Positions 11,887 to 23,485 of a stretch of 54,731 bases of DNA are shown piece by piece. The stretch's first letter is position 1; every line of letters starts with the position of its first letter. The stretch lies in contig CAIYLB010000076.1 in the NCBI GenBank assembly GCA_903926935.1, positions 1 to 54,731 on the forward strand, read 5' to 3'. Under the pieces are notes generated by a model that was given only the letters and a program-made list of their open reading frames with translations, did not search any database and was not told where the DNA came from. Origin of the DNA: an uncultured Pseudomonadota bacterium (GTDB lineage: Bacteria > Pseudomonadota > Gammaproteobacteria > Burkholderiales > Methylophilaceae). The position numbers were made by a program, and so were the translations under genes.

Positions 11887-12219
11887 TCAATGGAATAAAG
11901 ACTTTGAGAATAAATTAATCACGACAATTCCAGAGACTATAAGCAACAAACCTATAGTTGCGCCCAAATCTAGTGGCTCCTTAAAATATAACCAGGATAT
12001 AAGTGCTACAAAGCCAACAGCAACGCCAGTCCATATAGCATATGCAATCCCCACTGGTATGTACTTAAGTGTTCTTGATAAAAAATAAATTCCGGTGGTG
12101 TACCCTAAAATAACTAAAATAGAGGGCCTTAAGTTTGTAAATCCAACCGTGTACTTTAACGCCAAAGTGGCTATTATTTCGCAAACAATAGCGACAATGA
12201 GGAATAACCACTTTTCCAT
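11887..12219 (-). CDS. SMR-family small multidrug/cation exporter (EmrE/Qac-like)
   Basis: 110 aa, four TMs, conserved TM1 Glu (AIVCEIIAT), KYTVGF and GIAYAIWTG. Confidence 0.9.
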   Translation of the reverse strand: MEKWLFLIVAIVCEIIATLALKYTVGFTNLRPSILVILGYTTGIYFLSRTLKYIPVGIAYAIWTGVAVGFVALISWLYFKEPLDLGATIGLLLIVSGIVVINLFSKSLFH

Positions 12220-12348
12220 AATTTTCTTTTCTAGAACCTAAACTGTTAATTTTAAAACTTTGGCGAACCAAAAAATACGTCTTAAAACTTAACTTATTAC
12301 AGGACATTGTTAATAATTTTAAGCCGTTATAGATATTTAATATAACCT

Positions 12349-12662
12349 TTAAAATATCTCAACACTGCAATTACATTTTTTTGCAATCGCTTTCATGGCT
12401 GCAAGATTTACTCCGTCATCGAATTTTGGAGTTCCTTTTACAAGACCAAATTTTTTCCACCATTCTACGGTAAGTGCCCAAACTTCACGTGCCTTTCCAT
12501 TTTTCAGTCCTAATGGCGCAATTCCTGGTGTAACACCCATAAGACGGGTCGCTCAGCTAAATCAAAGACTGCCAAACCACCATCTTTGGGTTTGCCGTCC
12601 TTACCTATAACATCTTCGACATCGCTCACTTTAAAACCCAAATTACGAGCAATAATCGCATT
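12349..12662 (-). pseudogene. 3' remnant of an ABC solute-binding protein (probably SsuA/NMT1-like), frameshifted
   Basis: NAIIARNLGFKVSDVEDVIGKDGKPKDGGLAVFDLAE continues after an apparent 1-bp loss near 12551 as TRLMGVTPG...EWWKKFGLVKGTPKFDDGVN; no 5' part or start. Confidence 0.55.
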
Positions 12663-12863
12663 ACGATTAAAACACAGGCATGCCCTACCATTGTTTCTCC
12701 TAACCCAATAGGTATTAAGGGCACTTGGTGGGCAGAAGGTGAAAACCCCAACACCATTACACTTCTTCATGATCAAGATGGCATTCTGCGTGGCTTGTCA
12801 TTAACCGGCGAAGCCATATCACAGAAAAACATACTAACAAAACAGCTACCACCAATTTTATAA
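12660..12863 (+). pseudogene. 3' remnant of an NAD(P)H:rubredoxin reductase (RubB/NorW-like)
   Basis: Frame from 12660 reads ITIKTQACPTIVSPNPIGIKGTWWAEGENPNTITLLHDQDGILRGLSLTGEAISQKNILTKQLPPIL*, resembling the RubB C-terminus (VKTPACP..VSP...G.W...LTG...K..L.K.LP). No start codon; not in the ORF track. Confidence 0.75.
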
Positions 12864-13049
12864 TTGGGCTTTGGATTGGATCAGATTGGAAATATCGTCC
12901 AATCTATCGAATTCGTATCCAGAATATATTTGTATAAATAGGACTAAACACATATCCTGGTAAATAGGTTTACACACCATTAAAAAGCTTCTGGTTTCTA
13001 AGAATTGAGCTTACTAGCAAATTAACTGTAATTGTAAAAACGCCAGCAT

Positions 13050-14051
13050 CTAGATTAACAATTCATTTATTGCAGCGTTAATAAACGCACTTTCATTTGC
13101 AAATCTACCGGGCGCACCAGCGCAGTGGCCCGCCGATGAAAGTATTGGTCTTAATTCTGAATTCGGGCTTAGTGCGGCCTCAATGCTATTTTCTGCAAGA
13201 GTGAAATACTGATCATTATCGCAGGGCATGATAATTGTTTTAGCAGTCACTTGTGATAAAGCTAGCGCTAAGTCACCTTTAAATTTGTCATGAGCGCTGA
13301 CATCTGCATGCTGCCAAGTCCATATCTTAGTTAAAAGATCATTGGCATCCCAGCCCAAATGATCTTGCTCCCAATCTTCTAGTAATGCGTTTATAGAATC
13401 GAAACCGATCTCTTTATAACGCTCCTCGCGAAAGAATTCAGCTGAATAGGCCCAAGGAGCATAGGCTCTGCCAAATGCCCTGAGTCCGGCTGTTGGTTGA
13501 TTGATGTAATTACCATCGGCATAATCAACATCAGCTTGCAAAACGGATCTGATACTTTTGATAAAAATTTCGTTGTATGGCCAACAGCGCGTTGCGCCAC
13601 AAATCGGCAACAAGTTTTTAATCATTTCCGGATATAAAACTGCCCAATGCCAAACCTGCACGGCACCCATTGACCAACCTAATGCCAGCTTAATCTCGTT
13701 AACACCTAAAGCCTTTAACAAGGAGTGCTGGCATACAACGTTATCATAGACTGTGATGTTAGGAAAGCTACCAGCTGGATATCGATCTAAGGAATTACTA
13801 GGTGAAATAGATTGTGCGTTTCCAATCAAATTAGGCGTCACAATAAACCACTTATTGGGGTCTAGCGCCTGACCTTCCCCAATGATGCGAGCGTTTGATA
13901 AGTGATTGCCAGTGTAATAAGTTGGAAAAAGAATGCAGTTGTCTCCAGCTGCATTCAATCTACCCCAAGTAGCGAAAGTAAGCCAAGCATCATGGAGCAC
14001 TTCTCCACTTTGAAGGGTTATATCGCCAATTGAGAATTTTTGAATATGCAT
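13050..14051 (-). CDS. MetX/homoserine acetyltransferase-fold alpha/beta hydrolase
   Basis: TWGRLNAAGDN, GWSMG nucleophile elbow, C-terminal AGH; function probably not methionine synthesis. Confidence 0.8.
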   Translation of the reverse strand: MHIQKFSIGDITLQSGEVLHDAWLTFATWGRLNAAGDNCILFPTYYTGNHLSNARIIGEGQALDPNKWFIVTPNLIGNAQSISPSNSLDRYPAGSFPNITVYDNVVCQHSLLKALGVNEIKLALGWSMGAVQVWHWAVLYPEMIKNLLPICGATRCWPYNEIFIKSIRSVLQADVDYADGNYINQPTAGLRAFGRAYAPWAYSAEFFREERYKEIGFDSINALLEDWEQDHLGWDANDLLTKIWTWQHADVSAHDKFKGDLALALSQVTAKTIIMPCDNDQYFTLAENSIEAALSPNSELRPILSSAGHCAGAPGRFANESAFINAAINELLI

Positions 14052-14055
14052 AAAT

Positions 14056-15426
14056 TTAGAATAGTTTTAAATAACGGTCTTTTTCCCAATCACTCACATG
14101 ATTGTTGTAGCGTAGCCACTCTTCCGTTTTGTAATCTATCCAAGTTGCATGCATACTATTACCAAAAACCTGCTTCGCTAAAGGATCAAGCTTAAACATA
14201 TCAATAGCTTCTTTTAAAGACTGTGGCAGCATCTTGATGTTTAACGCCTCAAGCTCCTCAGTCGTTTTAAGATACATGTTTTCCGTATGCGGTTCGCCTG
14301 GGTCTAATTGCTGCTCTATGCCTTCAAGCCCAGCCGCCAATACCAATGCAGCTCCTAAATATGGATTACACGCACTATCAGCCGCTCGCAATTCAATGCG
14401 ACCGCCGCCCATCGGGATGCGTAGCGTGTTGGTACGATTATTGTCACCATAGCAGGCGAACACTGGGGCCCAAGTAAATCCAGACATACTACCTTTCAAT
14501 ACAAGTCGTTTGTAGCTATTCACCGTCGGAGCTACTGCGGCGCAAATTGCAGGCAAATGCTTCAACACACCAGCCATAAATTGATAACCTAATTTAGATA
14601 AGTTGCAGCCACGTGGGTCATTAGCTTCTTCAAATAGGTTTTTTCCGGTGACCTTATCTGCCAGTGACATGTTGAAGTGAGCTCCACTTCCGGCACGGTC
14701 ACCAAAAGGTTTAGGCATAAATGTCGCAAATCCGCCATGACGGCGTGCGACTTCATTGGCCATTAAGCGGAAAAATACAAAATTATCGGCCATGGTTAAG
14801 GCATCAAAATATTTGAAGTCGATTTCAAATTGTCCAATACCATCTTCGTGGTCTAATGAATAAACATCCCAGCCTAGTTCATTCATATATTTGACTAGTT
14901 CACGCATCCAATCCATATTATCTAGCAGGCGCGCGACGTCATAAGCAGGTTTATCTAAATGCTTGCGTGTTGATAGCGGTGAATAGCCACCATCTGCATC
15001 ATCCTTTAATACAAAAAACTCCGCCTCTATACCCAAATTCATGCGAAAACCCATCGCATCGGCCTTTGCTAATACATTTTTTAAAATAGTACGGCTGCAA
15101 GCCTCGAATGGCTCACCTTTAGTCCATAAGTCACTGGCAAACCAAGCAATTTCTTTATCCCAGGGCAATATCTTGCAGGAGCCTGGGTCAGGATGTGCGG
15201 CCACCTCCTCATCGCTTACATCTTGTGGCACACCTTCTAAAGCTGCACCAGTACATAATTCCGATCCTGACATCATGCGTTTATAATGCGCAATCGGCAC
15301 CATTTTTGACTTAGATACGCCATGTATGTCAACATAGCTTGCCAACATAAATTCAACCCCAGCCGCTTGCATTGCCTCTACATCGTTGCCGATATTGGCA
15401 GTTTCTGCTTGTTTTGTAACTTCCAT
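14056..15426 (-). CDS. GlnT-type (type III) glutamate--amine ligase, glutamine synthetase superfamily
   Basis: GIEAEFF, DHEDGIGQFE, FMPKP, GSGAHFN, NSYKRL, NNRT and ELR motifs. Confidence 0.85.
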   Translation of the reverse strand: MEVTKQAETANIGNDVEAMQAAGVEFMLASYVDIHGVSKSKMVPIAHYKRMMSGSELCTGAALEGVPQDVSDEEVAAHPDPGSCKILPWDKEIAWFASDLWTKGEPFEACSRTILKNVLAKADAMGFRMNLGIEAEFFVLKDDADGGYSPLSTRKHLDKPAYDVARLLDNMDWMRELVKYMNELGWDVYSLDHEDGIGQFEIDFKYFDALTMADNFVFFRLMANEVARRHGGFATFMPKPFGDRAGSGAHFNMSLADKVTGKNLFEEANDPRGCNLSKLGYQFMAGVLKHLPAICAAVAPTVNSYKRLVLKGSMSGFTWAPVFACYGDNNRTNTLRIPMGGGRIELRAADSACNPYLGAALVLAAGLEGIEQQLDPGEPHTENMYLKTTEELEALNIKMLPQSLKEAIDMFKLDPLAKQVFGNSMHATWIDYKTEEWLRYNNHVSDWEKDRYLKLF

Positions 15427-15508
15427 TATTTTCTAACCTTTAAGAGTTTCAGAACGAACCAATGATTGAAATACTTCAAATCTTGCTTGCAAGTTTTAAT
15501 CTGAACAC

Positions 15509-15609
15509 ATTTGGCTTAGGCGATTAATAGCAGTCTAATTTACAGAATTATATTCACTGTAAACCAGACGCCACAGACTCTAAAAGAACATAAAATCACC
15601 TAGCCAAAT
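15509..15609 (-). other. About 100-nt intergenic RNA hairpin
   Basis: AUUUGGCUAGGUGAUU/AAUCGCCUAAGCCAAAU outer stem and GUCUGGUUUACAG/CUGUAAAUUAGAC inner stem; stem mismatches are G-U only on the mRNA strand. Confidence 0.7.
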
Positions 15610-15641
15610 ATATTGCACCTTAGATAAACTATGACGAGAAA

Positions 15642-16640
15642 TTAATAGGCTTTATACAATGAAGGGTCAATGGCCTTGTCAATGTTTTGCGGACCTTTGT
15701 AAATGGCATTTTTTACATTAAAGTCATCAGAAATTTTAGATGAACCATAAATTGACTTTAAGCCATCCGCTTTCACAAACACGGCTTTACCTTCTTTTAA
15801 AGAGAGCAACCTAGTGCCTTTTAAGAACGTTTGATACTCAGTAGGTTTGAGGCCAACACGTGCAGACATGATTTTCACAGCATCTGCCTGAGTTTTAGGG
15901 TCATTAATATAGTCAACAACTTTACCCCAAACACCGACCACTTTTTTCCAATCCTCTTTACGATTTGAGAAGCTAGATGGACTCACTGTAAATACATCAT
16001 AAATTAGGCCCGGCGCTTGAGCTGAGGTGAAGATAGGTTTTGATCCATGAACAAGTTTTAAAGCTTGTCCTGCACTTGGTTGAAACACACCAATTGCCGC
16101 CAAATCGCCAGAAGCTAGTGCTTGTGGGGTGTCGTTGATTTTAACGTTCAAAAGCGTAACATCAGATTCTTTCATGCCAGCTTTCTCCAAACCATAGAGA
16201 AGTAAAAGATGATCAACGATGCCTAATTCCGTACCAACTTTCTTACCTTTTAAGTCTTTAAAACTTTCGACACCAGGCTTACCAATGATCATATCGTTAC
16301 CATTAGAGTAATCTGTAATCAGAACGATGACATTTTTACCCCCACCCGCACCCATGACCAAGGCGTCACCATTAGTCACGCCTACGCTGTCAAGCTTGCC
16401 GGCACTAAAAGCCTCGATTGAAGCGCCATAATCAAACCATTCAAATTTAACGTCAACGCCGGCTTCTTTAAACCAACCTTTCTCGATGGCAACCTGCCAT
16501 GCAACAAAACCTGGCCAATCGCTGTAACCTATTTTTAATGGTTGTGCGGCTTGGCTAATATTGCTAAAAGCAAAGGCTAAAGGAACAGCTGCTGTAATAA
16601 TCAGTTTTTTGAAACTTAAAACTTTTAAACGGGATTTCAT
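15642..16640 (-). CDS. ABC transporter solute-binding protein, SsuA/TauA/NMT1 type
   Basis: Signal peptide ending SQA; IGYSDWPG and DYSNGND motifs; AGGAG RBS. Confidence 0.88.
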   Translation of the reverse strand: MKSRLKVLSFKKLIITAAVPLAFAFSNISQAAQPLKIGYSDWPGFVAWQVAIEKGWFKEAGVDVKFEWFDYGASIEAFSAGKLDSVGVTNGDALVMGAGGGKNVIVLITDYSNGNDMIIGKPGVESFKDLKGKKVGTELGIVDHLLLLYGLEKAGMKESDVTLLNVKINDTPQALASGDLAAIGVFQPSAGQALKLVHGSKPIFTSAQAPGLIYDVFTVSPSSFSNRKEDWKKVVGVWGKVVDYINDPKTQADAVKIMSARVGLKPTEYQTFLKGTRLLSLKEGKAVFVKADGLKSIYGSSKISDDFNVKNAIYKGPQNIDKAIDPSLYKAY

Positions 16641-16710
16641 TGTTGCTCTCCTAATTAAATGTAACCAAAAAACTACTTTCTAAACGTTAGTGCTGCCAAA
16701 ACACCCTTCA

Positions 16711-17421
16711 TTAAACCAATGAAAAGTTTAATATTTGTCCCTCGCGAAAAGGCAAGGTAGAGTGATTAATTCTGCCGTGCGACGCGTCTACGATGTCACC
16801 AAACGAAATTTCAAAATCCAGCCAATTAAGTATGTCCAATAGACTTTGATTTGGGCTATCAATTAACGCCAATAAACTGCTCGCTTCTGGTAGATTTGAA
16901 CTACGTGGCCGAATAAAGGCAAACTGATTACCTGCTTTTAAAAGACGTGCGATCACCACAACACCATTTGAATCGAGGCTATTAATTTGGTGCGTACTCA
17001 CGTTGATGTGAGTACCTGCTATTTTGTCCCAAACCTCAAAGTAGACACTCTCTACGCCCGTCTCTAATAGTTTGTTTTCACCACTAAATACCATCTCACC
17101 AATATCCGGAACACCATTATCTGGCTGTAAATCTAGTTCACGGTGCCAATTACATATGTTGCCGCTCACTTCTGTTACGCCTGCAAAACCCTGCTGCGTC
17201 GCCAACCAACGCAATTGTTCCGTAGAGCAATCTTGCAAGCAGGTACAGTCTGAAAAATCTGGCCGTAATGCAGGAATACGTATATCTATATGTTGATTAT
17301 CGGCCTGTAACCAAAATACCAACGAAGTCGTATCCTGACTACCGTTCTGCTCAAGTAAACTTCTACGCCATACACCTAGGTAAGAAGCCGGCACCGCTAT
17401 CAATTTATTTAGTGGGTTCAT
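16711..17421 (-). CDS. Uncharacterised protein, Hri1-like by pattern; paralog of 20596..21567
   Basis: GVWRR..DTTSLVFWLQ...IDIRIP...GFAG...W.RELD..P...DIG...E.G...YFEVW; ATG at 17421 overlaps the upstream stop. Confidence 0.7.
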   Translation of the reverse strand: MNPLNKLIAVPASYLGVWRRSLLEQNGSQDTTSLVFWLQADNQHIDIRIPALRPDFSDCTCLQDCSTEQLRWLATQQGFAGVTEVSGNICNWHRELDLQPDNGVPDIGEMVFSGENKLLETGVESVYFEVWDKIAGTHINVSTHQINSLDSNGVVVIARLLKAGNQFAFIRPRSSNLPEASSLLALIDSPNQSLLDILNWLDFEISFGDIVDASHGRINHSTLPFREGQILNFSLV

Positions 17422-18200
17422 AGGTGATACTCGGGGAAAACCTTTAATGTTCTCCAAAAAGCCATATCGTGGTTTGGCCATAACTCAGCTTTTTCAGACT
17501 TAGCCAGAGATTTTAGCTTGCGAATACTAGCAATCGCCAACTCCGTTTGACCTTGCCAACAGTTTCCTGGGGCGATTTCATCGACTATATTTTCAGTTAA
17601 ATCGGCAGCATCACCGGCCAAGATAATAGGTGCGCCAGTGGGCATTTCTATCCACAATGACATATGACCCGCGGTATGCCCTGGACTAGCTATTGCGTGC
17701 ACACCTGCCGTTAAATTATATTCGCCCTTTTTCACTTTCCAGTTTGCTTGAGCAACGATTTCATTATCAAAATAGGCTAAATCATCACGAGGATTCGCTG
17801 AGGCCAACTCGTCGGCTTGAACATGCACCTCCGCCCCACATAAATCACATAAGCCGCCGGCATGATCAAAGTGCAAATGCCCTAAGAACACAACATCAAT
17901 ATCCTGTACCGATAATCCTAGACGCGCTAGTTGGCGTGGCAAGCGTTGCGACTCATCCATATCGGGTGCGCCAAAACTAAATACTTCTGGGTTATAGTAT
18001 TTTTCTCGCTGTGAGGCATCTGCTATTTTATTGTAGTCACATCCAACATCGTACAAAATACGACCATTTCTGGTCTCGATTAAGTAGGCTAAAATTGGCG
18101 CTTCTATCATCTGTCCAGCCCCGCGATTATGCGTAGATAAAGATTTATCATAACGGTGGGTAGCGGTTAAAATCGGCCAAACTTTGGTAACGGCAGTCAT
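17418..18200 (-). CDS. Metallo-beta-lactamase-fold hydrolase, AHL-lactonase-like family
   Basis: HLHFDH, PGHTAGH, AGDA and PNHD metal ligands. Confidence 0.88.
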   Translation of the reverse strand: MTAVTKVWPILTATHRYDKSLSTHNRGAGQMIEAPILAYLIETRNGRILYDVGCDYNKIADASQREKYYNPEVFSFGAPDMDESQRLPRQLARLGLSVQDIDVVFLGHLHFDHAGGLCDLCGAEVHVQADELASANPRDDLAYFDNEIVAQANWKVKKGEYNLTAGVHAIASPGHTAGHMSLWIEMPTGAPIILAGDAADLTENIVDEIAPGNCWQGQTELAIASIRKLKSLAKSEKAELWPNHDMAFWRTLKVFPEYHL

Positions 18201-18210
18201 GGTTTTATTC

Positions 18211-19248
18211 TCACAGTGCCGTCAAGAAAGAAACACCCGCAGCACCAATAAAAGCATTCGCACTAGCATTGCTGATAACTCCATAATCATCACTTTGAAG
18301 TCTAGTAATCCTATGGCAATGGTAGGCGCTCATAAGCTTGATCATTGGAATGACAGGCAACAAGTCCAAATCACCATACAACTTTTTATGAAGAGCTGGC
18401 AATTGATGCCAAGGCACTTTTGGTTTTTCGTGATGCGCGTTGTGATAGGGGAAATTTAAAAATAATAGGTTTAACCAAGGATATTTCAGTGAGGCTAAAT
18501 TTGAATAGGTATTCGCTTGTTCGTAAGCACGATCACGAAGCTTTCCGTCTTTAACTTTACCGCCGAACCGCGCAAGATCAGATTCTAAAAAAACATCATA
18601 TGTATGTTGAAAAGCATCAGCAAATCTAAGCGCAGTGAGCATGACGCAGTAAGCTAGCAGATATAGTAGCCATGCTTTAACAGACACCCATGCCATAAGA
18701 ACAAATATGGATGCTCTAAGAGAAAAAATTATAATTAATCTTAAGCGCTTATGGTGCCATTCTGATTTAATAAATGGCAAGATAATGACTAAAAAGTGCA
18801 TGAGTATTTCAATCGCTGGAATATACATCCACTCCAAAGCTTTGATAAGGTTTCTAGCCGCCGTCGGCATATCGCGCATCACATGCTGCACATTAAAAGT
18901 AAGTACATCCGCACGATCAGCATGATGATGCATGTGTTTATCACGAATCTCTTTGAAGGTGCTGTAGCAACTACCATTCACCCATGACAAGACAGTGCCC
19001 CACGTTTTATTTGTTTTAGGTGATTTAAACAAACTCCAATGTGATAACTCATGCAGTAAATAAGCACTAATAATCAATGCCTCAGCAGTGACTAGTACAC
19101 CAGCAAAATTAACTAGCCAATGTTCTGAAAAAAGCATAAAAATACCGATCGGGTAACCAAATAATACGAATGAGAATACCGCAGAATTTTTAAGCAGATC
19201 GAGGTTAAGCTTACGCTCAAGCACTTCTATAGATTTGATAACAGACAT
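18211..19248 (-). CDS. Membrane di-iron fatty-acid-desaturase-superfamily enzyme
   Basis: Three His boxes HELSH, HMHHH and HNAHH, plus QH; hydrophobic segments. ATG at 19248 preferred, since the track's TTG start lies inside the riboswitch expression platform. Confidence 0.85.
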   Translation of the reverse strand: MSVIKSIEVLERKLNLDLLKNSAVFSFVLFGYPIGIFMLFSEHWLVNFAGVLVTAEALIISAYLLHELSHWSLFKSPKTNKTWGTVLSWVNGSCYSTFKEIRDKHMHHHADRADVLTFNVQHVMRDMPTAARNLIKALEWMYIPAIEILMHFLVIILPFIKSEWHHKRLRLIIIFSLRASIFVLMAWVSVKAWLLYLLAYCVMLTALRFADAFQHTYDVFLESDLARFGGKVKDGKLRDRAYEQANTYSNLASLKYPWLNLLFLNFPYHNAHHEKPKVPWHQLPALHKKLYGDLDLLPVIPMIKLMSAYHCHRITRLQSDDYGVISNASANAFIGAAGVSFLTAL

Positions 19249-19266
19249 AATATATCCACAGTATTT

Positions 19267-19310
19267 AAAAGCCAAAAAGACAATATTAGAATTCAGTCTC
19301 CCGGGCTTTT
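19267..19310 (-). terminator. Putative riboswitch expression platform (terminator competing with the aptamer 3' end)
   Basis: AAAAGCC-C-GGGAGAC of the aptamer can pair with downstream GUCUUUU-U-GGCUUUU. Confidence 0.7.
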
Positions 19311-19392
19311 ATCCCTCCGTGTAGCCAGTTTTAATTGGCCGAGAACTCTTGGACCAGACATTTTTATAAAAAAACCGGAACCCTAGCTCTCT
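19298..19392 (-). ncRNA. Guanidine-I (ykkC-yxkD) riboswitch aptamer
   Basis: Minus strand GAGAGCUAGGGUUCCGG...GUCUGGUCCAAGAGUUCUC-GGCCA..UGGCU-ACACGGAGGGAUAAAAGCCCGGGAG; P1 closes GAGAGC/GUUCUC. Confidence 0.95.
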
Positions 19393-19444
19393 TTTTTAAA
19401 GCAGGTAGATGTGAGTGTTAAATTGAACTACCTAAATTAATATT

Positions 19445-19460
19445 AGCAATGAACGTGCCA
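19445..19460 (-). promoter_or_regulatory. sigma54 -24/-12 promoter, operon A
   Basis: TGGCAC-GTTCA-TTGCT, exact consensus, about 50 bp upstream of the aptamer. Confidence 0.88.
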
Positions 19461-19710: not shown

Positions 19711-20595
19711 ATGCAATCAACAGCGAAATTTTGGCAAAACTGGCAAGAGTTCAGGTCTGCTCAACAAGAAATTATTCTACCGGCTGGCCAAGTCGCGCAC
19801 ACACAAGTTTCTATCCGCTATATAGACATAGGTGTCGACATACACGGCACAATTCTTTTGATGCACGGCATACCAACATGGGGATTTATCTACCATGAAG
19901 TAATTCCACTATTGGTAAAATCTGGCTACCGTGTGATCGCTCCTGACTTTTTAGGTCACGGATGGTCTGATCGTAGAGACTGTTTTGACCGATCTTTTCA
20001 AGATCAAGCAAAGATGATCGTTGCATTATTATCGGCAATCAACATAAAAAGTGTGCATGTTGTTGGGCACGATACTGGAGGTGCAGTAGCACTTATTCTA
20101 GCAATAGAACACCAACAATATGTGCGCCATCTTATAATTTCAAACGCAGTTTGCTACGATCGTTTTGATGATGATATGCTAGATTTTGGCCACCCACTCA
20201 GATGGAAAGCGCGCCCATTGAAAGACCTTGTGGATACTCTAGAACTTAGCCTTGCCATGGGAGTTTCTAACAAGAATCGACTTACGCCAGAGTTTAGACA
20301 AGGCATCATTGCGCCTTGGGCGAGTGAGGAAGGAAAGTTGAGCCTGCTTCGAAATGCATCAGCCCTTAATGCAAACCAGACCATGGCACTGGTCGATCGC
20401 CATGGCAAAATTACAGCTAAGACGATGATTCTTTGGGGAATGGATGACCCTTGGCAGAAATCAGAAGATGGCCAACAACTCGCTCAAGAAATTCCAGGAG
20501 CCATATTCAAAGGCATTTATGGCGCTTCGCATTGGCTACAACAAGACTCACCTGCAGAGTTTACTGAGGCACTTCTGGATTTTTTTCATCCTTAA
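19711..20595 (+). CDS. Alpha/beta hydrolase, epoxide hydrolase/haloalkane dehalogenase-like
   Basis: HGIP, PDFLGHGWS, GHDTGG (Asp nucleophile), WGMDD and SHW. Confidence 0.85.
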   Translation: MQSTAKFWQNWQEFRSAQQEIILPAGQVAHTQVSIRYIDIGVDIHGTILLMHGIPTWGFIYHEVIPLLVKSGYRVIAPDFLGHGWSDRRDCFDRSFQDQAKMIVALLSAINIKSVHVVGHDTGGAVALILAIEHQQYVRHLIISNAVCYDRFDDDMLDFGHPLRWKARPLKDLVDTLELSLAMGVSNKNRLTPEFRQGIIAPWASEEGKLSLLRNASALNANQTMALVDRHGKITAKTMILWGMDDPWQKSEDGQQLAQEIPGAIFKGIYGASHWLQQDSPAEFTEALLDFFHP

Positions 20596-21567
20596 CTAAA
20601 GTACTTTTGTATAGCGTGACATAGTCGATGATTCACGTTCAAACCAAGATTCTGCCTCATGAGTAAAAGCGGTCGACTGGCTAAAGTCAACATGGGATTC
20701 AAGCGTATCAATAGAAAAAATTCGTTCGCAGGGCACGCCTGCAACGGTTAGTTTTTGGCGAACAACATCCATTACTGCCGAATTTCCATACTGATATTGA
20801 GTTATGCACTCAAATCCTTCTAAGCAAAATAAATCTTGCCCCATCCGGGATGCTTGTGTTGAATGGATCACGTTAAAACCTTGCTGAACCGAGCCTTTAG
20901 CCACGGAGGTCTCAAAGTTTAATAAACTTGTCAAAAGTCCAATATCACCACTAGCATTTGCGACCAAACTCTTAAGCGTGGCCCCTGGCACCTTATTAAA
21001 AAATTCTGGCCCACGTCCTAACACCAATCCAGCATAGTCTCCGCAGACTATTAATCCACCACCGCTATGTCGAACTTCTCCGGTGGAAAGATTACGCTCT
21101 TCTATCAGATTTAGCCCCACCAACGGCCCCGAACTAGAAGGCTGTAAACGCCAATCTTCAACATAAGCATCGCTAGGGCAAAACTCAACCATACAATTAC
21201 CAACACGCTTTAATATGGCCGGCTCGGTCCAGCGATTGTGCAGTTGGAATGAAGCATTAGCTTCCTGCCAACTTAATATTTCGCCATCCCAGTCTGAAGC
21301 CGCTAACCAGCCCTCATAGTTGGCAACTTGCTGTAACTCATCTTCAGAATACTCAAGCAAAGGCTTCGCTACTACTTGGTCAGCATCACGAGGCAAACGA
21401 AGGTCAATGCTAAAGTTACGACTCTGTAACCAGCACACATGTGTTTTAAGGTCAGTCATACCATTAGCAAAACTAATCGAATAACGCTTAAAGAAACCCA
21501 GCATCCAATCAGGTACACTATGCTCAGGGCGTTTACCATGTAGCTCGACTAGTTCTTGCAGCTTCAT
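20596..21567 (-). CDS. Uncharacterised protein coupled to the 2OG dioxygenase; candidate hydroxymethyl-guanidine lyase
   Basis: Start overlaps the dioxygenase stop; VCWLQ...IDLRLP and YVEDW motifs shared with 16711..17421. Function is inference. Confidence 0.65.
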   Translation of the reverse strand: MKLQELVELHGKRPEHSVPDWMLGFFKRYSISFANGMTDLKTHVCWLQSRNFSIDLRLPRDADQVVAKPLLEYSEDELQQVANYEGWLAASDWDGEILSWQEANASFQLHNRWTEPAILKRVGNCMVEFCPSDAYVEDWRLQPSSSGPLVGLNLIEERNLSTGEVRHSGGGLIVCGDYAGLVLGRGPEFFNKVPGATLKSLVANASGDIGLLTSLLNFETSVAKGSVQQGFNVIHSTQASRMGQDLFCLEGFECITQYQYGNSAVMDVVRQKLTVAGVPCERIFSIDTLESHVDFSQSTAFTHEAESWFERESSTMSRYTKVL

Positions 21568-22637
21568 TTAGTTAGCTCCACAGATTCTAAATGAGATTGC
21601 GGCTTATGCCCAAAAGATGACAACCCTTTTGCGCCATCGGGTAATACCAAGGCACCATTAGCTAGACGATTTTTGAGATAGGCAAAGGTTTGCATAGTTT
21701 GTGCATATAGATGCTCCCCACATACTATCGGTTTATAGTGCGAAGGCTTATCTGTCGATAAAAGTGATTCTATAGGCTTTATCACCGTGTCATAATCACA
21801 TGCGCAGAACAATGGAAACGAGTAGCGCTCCTGCTTTACTTTTCTTACCCTATGCATGGTTGCGACGAAATATCCATTGCTTAACACTTCCAGCATGTCA
21901 CCAATATTGATAACAAAAGCTCCACTTACAACTGGCGCATCGATCCACTCCATGGCGCCATTCTGGACCTCCAAACCATCCTCGGTGGCTAGCAGAATGG
22001 TGAAACATTCGTAATCTGTGTGGGCTCCTATTCCAGGCCTATCTTCTGGGGCCGCTGGACTAAAAGGATAATGCACAAGTCGCAATTGACTTGGTGGCGC
22101 AGTGACTTTATTGGTGAAATAATCTTCTGGCAGATTCAAGGCCAAAGCAAAGCCTCGGAATAGCGCATTACTTAACGCAAAAACTGCATCGTAATAGGCC
22201 TTGACATCTTCTTTAAATCTAGGGAAATCTGGCCAGCGATTTGGGCCTAACATTGGTCTACGTACTTCTGACTGCTTAAGATCAAAACCAACATCGTAAG
22301 CTTCTTTGAGATCTGGCTTGGCTGAAAGATACTGCTCTTCGCCCTCAGGGACATAGCCACTGTGATTGGAAGAGTTGCCTATATAATCCTGCATCTTTTG
22401 CTCATAGGTCTGAGAAAAATATTCACGAGTGCGTGTCTTGAGATTTTCAATCAAATCTTGCTGCACACCATGTCCTACAATGTAAAGAAAACCTGCATCA
22501 CGTGCTGCATTTCCAAGTGCTTTTGCAGCTTCCTTACGTTCGGTAAGATCGGATGAAAATAATAAAGAGATATCTATCAGTGGTAGTTTCTTAAAGGCTG
22601 TATGTGGGCGAACCGGACTAATCTGAACTTCAGACAT
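21564..22637 (-). CDS. 2-oxoglutarate/Fe(II) dioxygenase, IPNS-like family
   Basis: LPLIDIS, GFLYIVGHG, HTD...H facial triad (HTDYEC, MHRV) and RYS; ATG at 22637 after an AAAGGA RBS. Confidence 0.92.
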   Translation of the reverse strand: MSEVQISPVRPHTAFKKLPLIDISLLFSSDLTERKEAAKALGNAARDAGFLYIVGHGVQQDLIENLKTRTREYFSQTYEQKMQDYIGNSSNHSGYVPEGEEQYLSAKPDLKEAYDVGFDLKQSEVRRPMLGPNRWPDFPRFKEDVKAYYDAVFALSNALFRGFALALNLPEDYFTNKVTAPPSQLRLVHYPFSPAAPEDRPGIGAHTDYECFTILLATEDGLEVQNGAMEWIDAPVVSGAFVINIGDMLEVLSNGYFVATMHRVRKVKQERYSFPLFCACDYDTVIKPIESLLSTDKPSHYKPIVCGEHLYAQTMQTFAYLKNRLANGALVLPDGAKGLSSFGHKPQSHLESVELTK

Positions 22638-22658
22638 GCTAAATCCTTTCAAAAGTAT

Positions 22659-22764
22659 CTGGTCGTCCAGTTGAGGTTTGTTGAGCTAATAAAATCTAAC
22701 AAAGCACATAACCGACATATTTTTGCTCTTATGCTCGCTAAGAACCATCCTAGGTCGTCCCAGG
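22659..22764 (-). ncRNA. Guanidine-II (mini-ykkC) riboswitch-like hairpin pair with long linker
   Basis: P1 CCUGGG-ACGA-CCUAGG (22749-22764) and P2 CUGG-ACGA-CCAG (22659-22670), with P2 just ahead of the RBS; 78-nt linker. Confidence 0.75.
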
Positions 22765-22789
22765 CAAGATAAATGTTAATATTTATTAA

Positions 22790-22805: not shown

Positions 22806-23146
22806 AACATATAGCAGACTGCTAGATGTGAATTTTCGTTTTTATTTTGTAGTGGGCAAAACACTTCATTTAAGGCGAATTAGCCCTTATGATTAGAATA
22901 GCGCGAGTAAATCTTACTATTCATACTAGGAGCAGCATATTCTATTCATTAATTTCTTGGTACATTAGCATGCGTGACGCACCAAATTGAAGCCATCTTG
23001 GGGATTCATCTGAGAAGAGCTAACCGCAAAAACATACCAATCGAGCCAGCATTTGGCTTGCCCCTCAAATAGATAAGCTAAAGCTCATTATGCACACGTC
23101 AAAGCTGATTATTCGTATGTGAAAGTGACAATTAAAGAGTGAGAGT

Positions 23147-23485
23147 GAAGCTGGCCGATAAGCCGGGTTCTGTAGGCCTTATTACTAAGGCTGACAGTCA
23201 TTCATCTAGGCGCACAATTACTTGTACGCTCAAGCAACCTACCCGCTGGCAGCGCGAACCACGCCTTATTAACCGAAGTTAAAGCGCCAGCCTATTTGGT
23301 CTTGCTGCGAATGGAGGTTACCGCGTTTCACCGTAACTTAATACGCTCGTCTCTGTGGCCCTATTCCGCGCCTTATACTTGGTTGCCCAAGCTTTCAACG
23401 TACGGCCGTTAGCCGTCATCCCGCTCTATGCAGCCCGGACTTTCCTCCCCTCACTTACGTGAGCGGCGACTGTCTAGCCAGCTTC
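23147..23485 (-). ncRNA. rnpB: RNase P RNA, class A
   Basis: GAAGCUGGC ends pair; GAGGAAAGUCCGGGC and ACAGAACCCGGCUUA universal motifs. Confidence 0.98.

Follow-up and report, generated by a model that had tools for sequence, protein, structure and literature searches.

A predicted guanidine-II riboswitch variant with a long linker upstream of putative methylguanidine-demethylating genes in a Methylophilaceae bacterium

The DNA analyzed here, called the window, is a 54,731-nucleotide contig from an uncultured member of the Methylophilaceae. Its minus strand carries a 2OG-Fe(II) dioxygenase gene of 357 aa (21564..22637; Pfam DIOX_N and 2OG-FeII_Oxy), whose product resembles MgdH, followed by the gene of a 323-aa MgdL-like protein (20596..21567) that overlaps the dioxygenase stop. 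The dioxygenase is 53% identical over 333 aa to that of another locus, L112, where it is encoded between gca and an MgdL-type gene; this gca-linked protein stood in for MgdH in the comparison, in place of the assayed enzyme. The gca-mgdH-mgdL order of L112 is the one described for mgdH, according to excerpts of PMC12508155. In a quick tree (63 rows, after dropping 25 near-redundant ones and skipping duplicates; L081 and L091 are partial sequences), the clade of the window's dioxygenase was separate from the single MgdH-type row, which has a long branch. The 323-aa protein had no sequence match in Pfam, NCBIfam or PDB. Aligned at 22% identity with the MgdL-type protein, it has D and R at the positions of D49 and R51, two lyase residues for which a catalytic role is reported in the portions seen of PMC12508155. 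Both are invariant in the alignment, which includes the product of 20596-21567 and a second MgdL-like protein of the window (16711-17481). An MgdL-like gene follows the dioxygenase in 47 of 48 related loci. The likeness to MgdH and MgdL goes beyond what the initial annotation had noticed; judged from sequence, methylguanidine demethylation is the likely job of the gene pair, with methylguanidine as presumed substrate.

The genome also contains cgdA, cgdB, gca and atzF. A guanidine-I riboswitch lies 3.3 kb from the element described below (19296-19397, minus strand, 95 bits), behind a second sigma54-type site (19445-19460, minus strand), and heads the genes at 11887-19275. This run encodes a desaturase-like protein, an MBL-fold hydrolase, the second MgdL-like protein (36% identity to the MgdL-type protein), an ABC substrate-binding protein, a glutamine-synthetase-like ligase and an alpha/beta hydrolase. 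An SMR-like gene lies past the run, which resembles another guanidino-compound module. An alpha/beta hydrolase gene on the plus strand (19711-20595) converges without a gap on the MgdL-like gene, as it does in L002 and L007. Elsewhere in the same genome, an allophanate hydrolase match on contig C144 (14561-16259, minus strand) is divided between two open frames, one covering model positions 2-422 and the other 430-562, so that either the gene is split or there is a frameshift. On contig C245, an ordinary guanidine-II-like element (L109, 1468-1512, minus strand) sits between cgdB and gca, at 20.5 bits, under the Rfam cut-off; L100 has a similar one at 25.7 bits. At nine other loci (L005, L006, L033, L034, L037, L038, L040, L043 and L044), the dioxygenase unit stands back-to-back with a cgdA-cgdB operon. 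The eight of these that were scanned with Rfam gave guanidine-I matches, and most also have an ordinary guanidine-II element before gca, so that up to three guanidine switches occur in about 4 kb.

Upstream of the dioxygenase, the minus strand carries a GG..GC element at 22805-22790, which we take to be a sigma54-type -24/-12 site, and TGGTGC at 22979-22984, presumably an NtrC-type half-site. Because of the position of the first, transcription would start near 22779, about 15 nt 5' of the first hairpin of the pair described below. When the same motifs were searched in leaders that carry this pair, a sigma54-type site lay within 100 nt of the first hairpin in 43 of 50, and an NtrC-type half-site 60-260 nt 5' of it in 34 of 50; among 50 coding controls, each was seen once. 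Both ntrC and rpoN are present in the genome. A sigma70-like site overlapping the promoter was discarded, such sites being at chance level (10 found versus 9.1). Directly 5' of the promoter region is the RNase P RNA gene (23143-23485, minus strand; Rfam), and the same holds in L001.

Between the sigma54-type site and the dioxygenase ATG (22637) lie two hairpins on the minus strand. P1 (22764-22749) has a 6-bp stem with one G-U pair, and P2 (22670-22659) a 4-bp stem; both have an ACGA loop closed by GG/CC pairs, that is, a GG-ACGA-CC core. The linker between them (22748-22671) is 78 nt long, and a Shine-Dalgarno-like AAAGGA (22649-22644) follows 9 nt 3' of P2. The initial annotation had described these two hairpins, 78 nt apart, the first after the sigma54 start and the second before the ribosome binding site, and all of this was recovered here. 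The pattern GGACGRCC occurs three times in the window versus 0.73 expected. Among the 33 cores of the whole genome, the window's pair is the only one with a spacing of 300 nt or less, and the number of pairs 8-120 nt apart expected by chance genome-wide is 0.024 if the cores alone are considered and 0.0009 if stems of at least 4 bp are required. The nucleotides said to define the guanidine-II pocket, 8 per hairpin and 16 in total, are all unchanged.

Set beside the guanidine-II family (RF01068), the element has its tandem ACGR hairpins with two G-C closing pairs per loop, and its closeness to the Shine-Dalgarno sequence of a guanidine-related gene, here the MgdH-like gene with other guanidine genes nearby. 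The 78-nt linker exceeds the 7-40 nt given in the accessible part of PMC5558903, in agreement with the earlier proposal of a guanidine-II-type element with an unusually long linker, and the Rfam gathering score of 32 bits is not reached. Because its linker falls outside the published range, and its score below the Rfam cut-off as well, we file the element as a variant and not as a plain member; on sequence grounds it is a real guanidine-II variant, for which ligand binding is predicted.

The search with Rfam, on the window and on its genome, gave no guanidine-II match to the element at the gathering score, nor, in the window, at E values up to 10, as had been anticipated, and it did detect the RNase P RNA and the guanidine-I riboswitch. 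The initial annotation had attributed such a miss to the long linker. The miss is real, but it is not peculiar to long linkers: the gathering score was reached by none of the 22 family leaders scanned, those with 11-12-nt linkers included, and since members with linkers of 11-22 nt were missed too, linker length is not the sole cause. In a rescan of six leaders, two scored 24.0 and 21.7 bits against the cut-off of 32 and four were unlisted, whereas ordinary guanidine-II elements in the same loci gave 7 Rfam matches at 42-46 bits. A model built from 28 leaders with linkers of 20-37 nt ranked the window element first in the window, with 24 bits and a rough E value of about 0.001; it matched each of the 19 held-out leaders, and the 6 leaders without the pair gave no match. 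Rfam-based counts of guanidine-II would thus overlook all of this gene-linked family, its short-linker members too.

This family was delimited by a pair search 5' of dioxygenase homologs, as the initial annotation had advised. In the genome collection, the hairpin pair precedes the dioxygenase in 43 of 48 related loci, belonging to Methylophilaceae, Pseudomonadaceae, Cellvibrionaceae, Comamonadaceae, Rhodocyclaceae and Moraxellaceae; absence upstream of orthologs, which would have spoken against the proposal, is therefore not what was seen. The five others are L002, which is incomplete, and L003, L007, L010 and L022, which are full-length and have no pair. With metagenome and other loci added, the pair was found in 81 of 98 matched loci (duplicates and incomplete loci counted), corresponding to 58 distinct leaders. 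In the control-set analysis, the pair was present at L113 and L115 as well. Many leaders are close kin, so that all family counts are inflated and the independence of the observations is overstated.

Both loops are ACGR (ACGA or ACGG) in 58 of the 58 distinct leaders, which had themselves been selected by a core pattern requiring ACGR. The P2 12-mer reads CUGGACGRCCAG in 56 of them. Changes on both sides were found at four of the six pairs of the P1 stem. The P2 core is nearly invariant, and hence uninformative for covariation; its two outer pairs account for 7 double changes. A second Methylophilaceae dioxygenase subfamily, L055, L056 and L057 (53-57% identity), has no hairpin pair of its own, and the DNA 5' of these three genes resembles, by eye, the end of an MBL-fold hydrolase gene.

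Linkers in the family span 11-79 nt and exceed 40 nt in 9 of the 43 genome-collection leaders. The long ones are distributed over no fewer than three distinct regions of the tree, namely the Methylophilaceae group, Halopseudomonas-like groups and the Alkanindiges group, plus L008, the backbone of the tree being poorly resolved. The window's 78 nt is, judged by these sequences, the long end of a continuum within one gene-linked family and not a separate form. Long linkers were also sought outside the family. The bare two-core pattern with a gap of 41-100 nt matched 172 of 401 genomes, the reversed control generally giving more, and the inspected cases among those listed looked like chance. A corrected, stricter pattern applied to 251 genomes of the order returned the window and two matches with no P1 stem, and no new long-linker example.

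Linker sequence is not conserved across the family; its fold is more regular. Among the best folds of the 52 distinct linkers of at least 16 nt, 47 consist of one hairpin that begins within 2 nt of P1 and leaves 4-11 nt before P2, versus 13.7 in shuffles. For linkers longer than 45 nt, the same single-hairpin architecture was obtained in 6 of 8 versus 0.6 expected. The helix is anchored 3-5 nt 3' of the P1 core and 10-13 nt 5' of the P2 core. The 4 bp at its base occur in 27 different sequences, and all four aligned pairs show changes on both sides in 28 leaders. Linkers of 11-14 nt form no hairpin. In the family, the extra linker length is predicted to form a hairpin placed right after P1. 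The free path from P1 to P2 comes to about 9-13 steps in most members, which by our model is enough for the 49-50 Å spanned by the guanidine-II kissing dimer, as given in excerpts of PMC5558903 and PMC5486947. A testable rule follows: the free path between the hairpins is constant, and linker length is not.

The window itself, one of two long-linker exceptions to this architecture, matches it only loosely in prediction. Its linker has a minimum free energy of -12.4 kcal/mol, with a z score of 0.06, half of 200 shuffles folding equally well. The best fold consists of two small hairpins. An alternative at -12.0 kcal/mol is one long hairpin of the family type, closed by 22746-22743 with 22678-22675, which makes up 23% of the ensemble and is outside the usual register. 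The self-complementarity AGCAUAA...UUAUGU-GCU, which the initial annotation had noted, does exist (22735-22729 with 22711-22703) but is not above chance. The annotation had further supposed that this helix brings the loops together. Family linkers do fold as a hairpin, but one whose 5' strand begins immediately after P1 and whose 3' strand ends near P2; the named helix is a minor inner part of the family-type fold, found in 17% of sampled linker folds.

These observations raise the possibility that the switch works as a guanidine-II riboswitch while the window's 78 nt, rich in AU, tether the hairpins loosely without any defined fold; the loops would still meet, at some cost in affinity. The chance-level folding of the linker is in line with this, as is its free path, averaging 19 steps. 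L001, the closest relative (90% protein identity), has a related 65-nt linker that folds more weakly and shows no anchored helix, and mutations in the Pseudomonas aeruginosa linker were mostly without effect, according to the part of PMC10351892 available to us. Against it, the family-type hairpin costs just 0.4 kcal/mol in the window, both predicted window folds shorten the linker greatly, and family-type folds appear in 100% of samples for L017, whose 79-nt linker can be aligned to that of the window, and in 84% for L062. Altogether we regard the loose tether as an alternative of some weight, but a rather unlikely one, and keep the folded-back linker as the preferred reading.

A further point that the initial annotation had not raised is a likely expression platform 3' of P2. 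Most leaders allow a helix that begins in the 3' strand of P2, spans the Shine-Dalgarno sequence and reaches the start codon. In a ligand-free folding model of 50 leaders (L062 was dropped, as no start was found), P1 formed with a median probability of 0.97 and P2 with 0.007, against 0.72 for P2 when the 3' part was shuffled. Forcing P1 and P2 together made opening of the ribosome site cheaper by a median of 3.5 kcal/mol versus 0.4 in the control, with a value above control in 46 of the 50. In 44 aligned leaders, 77% of the cells of this OFF structure were paired, compared with 27-50% when the structure was slid along the alignment, and 27 double changes were counted versus 15.3 ± 3.0, one pair going from G-C to A-U in 11 sequences. 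The lower OFF helix shows no double changes, and RNAalifold on the alignment from P2 to the start returned P2 alone as consensus, not the OFF helix. By contrast with the family leaders, ordinary guanidine-II elements used as controls kept P2 at a probability of at least 0.93 in 8 of the 10 computed. This control set had 12 elements; the 8.2 kcal/mol of L040 reflects an incorrectly chosen start, and the start chosen for L103 is doubtful too. The model thus predicts that, in the family, P2 unfolds and covers the ribosome site when the ligand is absent.

For the window, the predicted OFF fold (22623..22670, minus strand) pairs the P2 5' strand, 22670-22665, with codons 4-5, 22628-22623, and 22661-22656 with the start codon region, 22636-22631; it excludes P2. 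The window is off the family register of the upper OFF helix. Its switch is weak in the model (0.92 kcal/mol, with P2 at 0.27 and P1 at 0.56). The Shine-Dalgarno sequence would be unpaired with a probability of 0.03 with P2 formed versus 0.25 without it, and the AUG with 0.15 versus 0.07. P1 was misfolded in predictions at 15-25 °C, and the window leader as a whole folded no better than its shuffles (z -0.24). No switching was predicted for L001. The family lends strong evidence to the case, which is weakest where it concerns the fold and the switch of the window itself. RNA contigs from two runs, of which they formed small shares, cover bits of both genes at a depth of 2-4; the leader lies outside this coverage.

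It could be that the element is decaying in the lineage of the window, the hairpins being left over, switching lost, and control exerted by sigma54 and NtrC alone. Besides the weak predicted switching in the window and its absence in L001, such decay would fit the sister Methylotenera clade L003, L007 and L058, in which the dioxygenase has no hairpin pair and L007 retains a sigma54 site. But loops and closing pairs are exact in the window, L001 and L017 despite many changes in the linker. Moreover, all three Methylophilaceae with the pair retain the P2-complementary codons 4-5, and the four without it, which form one clade, do not; L003, L007 and L058 are among the loci missing these codons. 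We consider decay improbable. A still more remote idea, to which we give hardly any credence, is that the hairpins are GGA protein sites of the CsrA/RsmA type, or that P1 is an intrinsic terminator. The AGGA of the Shine-Dalgarno sequence does stand in a hairpin loop of the predicted OFF fold, and a terminator scan lists P1. Yet no CsrA was found in a genome 95% complete, the GGA of P1 and of P2 is inside stems, relatives have no U-run after P1, and terminator-like sites were at chance level (5 versus 3.2 ± 1.8). CsrA binding and termination were rejected on these grounds.

Our main reading is that the ACGA pair is a guanidine-II-type translational ON switch for the predicted methylguanidine-demethylating genes, its long linker folding back so that the loops can kiss; we give it a probability of roughly 0.72. 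Under nitrogen limitation, NtrC and sigma54 would turn transcription on. As long as ligand is absent, P1 would be folded and P2 pulled apart by the competing helix over the Shine-Dalgarno sequence and start, which in the window would involve the AUG and codons 2-5. Guanidine or methylguanidine would bind both kissing loops, hold P2 folded and free the ribosome site. The hairpin inserted after P1 would absorb the surplus, so that about 4-11 unpaired bases and the width of one helix would be enough to bridge roughly 50 Å. The dioxygenase and the lyase would then split a methylated guanidine into formaldehyde and guanidine, whose nitrogen would be released by the guanidine carboxylase route of the same genome.

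In the parts of the sources at hand, guanidine-II is described as binding methylguanidine (PMC5486947), with a KD of 83 μM versus 93 μM for guanidine (PMC12508155). Because guanidine-II pockets take methylguanidine, the substrate itself could induce the gene pair. The hairpins might prefer some other guanidino compound, for instance the substrate of the dioxygenase or its hydroxymethyl product, or the dioxygenase might free guanidine from a larger compound. Induction by a substrate would be more useful than induction by a product, and the same excerpts of PMC5486947 describe a pocket with one open side that accommodates methyl, amino and agmatine side chains. The modest 53% identity of the enzyme to the MgdH-type protein and the longer, 323-aa subfamily of the lyase also leave room for another substrate. 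Since all pocket nucleotides are unchanged, no sequence basis was found for a large shift in specificity, and we hold a different ligand to be quite unlikely.

A bolder extension of the main reading is that these leaders form a three-helix subclass of guanidine-II, widespread and invisible to Rfam. A hairpin stacked on P1 would serve as a free insertion site, giving linkers of 11-79 nt through several independent lengthening events, and P2 would have a second role as the strand blocking the start codon. This subclass would be tuned to methylguanidine, as the substrate of the enzymes under its control, and act with NtrC and sigma54 as a gate for "nitrogen-starved AND substrate present". Taken as a whole, this extension is speculative and, in our estimate, unlikely to hold in full; if it were true, a methylotroph would gain both nitrogen and formaldehyde.

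Returning to the main reading, the linker hairpin offers a natural insertion site for sensor modules, and the known range of guanidine-II linkers would be extended about two-fold. The OFF helix, which shows covariation, is a candidate for the expression platform in a class where few examples have informed the switching mechanism. As for the genes, the sigma54-type unit with mgdH/mgdL-like genes appears to reach far past the halophiles, where the enzymes were described, to pseudomonads, Cellvibrionaceae, Burkholderiales and methylotrophs.

With the known guanidine-II riboswitches (RF01068; E. coli sugE/gdx, P. aeruginosa, Gloeobacter violaceus), the element and its family share the two ACGR hairpins with two closing G-C pairs, the place just before the ribosome site, the guanidine-related genes and the predicted translational ON switch. 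They differ by their linkers, 78 nt in the window and 11-79 nt in the family against the 7-40 nt published (PMC5558903, as excerpted), by the linker hairpin, and by a nearly fixed P2, CUGG-ACGR-CCAG. In the available portions of the literature, the linker is elsewhere described merely as variable. Neither a linker hairpin nor linkers above 40 nt were found described in the parts surveyed of PMC1950547, PMC5486947, PMC7266159, PMC9481103, PMC11423145, PMC12186494 and PMC12623156; the alignment of the founding paper, which may hold such cases, is outside that survey. The predicted OFF state also differs, since in the family P2 is given up to a helix over the Shine-Dalgarno sequence and start, whereas published models, as far as the excerpts of PMC10351892, PMC5558903, PMC9094411 and PMC9300104 go, have a linker anti-Shine-Dalgarno sequence and a 5'/3' tail helix. 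In one E. coli study, also seen in part, P2 unfolds and pairs with the linker at 10 mM Mg2+.

The ordinary guanidine-II elements found before gca, in the same loci and the same genome, likewise have an ACGR hairpin pair; their linkers are 10-19 nt long and mostly unfolded, and their P2 is stable. The separation is not complete. At L103 (1501-1553, minus strand), an Rfam-positive guanidine-II element before an SMR exporter gene carries a linker hairpin immediately 3' of P1 and is predicted to lose P2. As this element shows both, linker hairpin and P2 loss are not confined to the dioxygenase family.

The closest parallel for the genes is mgdH/mgdL of Vreelandella boliviensis, known to us from excerpts of PMC12508155. 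Common to both are a 2OG-Fe(II) dioxygenase followed by a D-x-R lyase-type gene, a guanidine riboswitch, and the carboxylase route in the genome. Compared with the gca-linked pair of L112, the window's dioxygenase shows 53% identity and its lyase-like protein 22%, the latter having about 100 additional aa. In V. boliviensis, mgdH and mgdL are inside the gca operon and the guanidine-II riboswitch stands before gca, whereas in the window the two genes head a sigma54-type unit of their own, with the putative switch directly before the dioxygenase.
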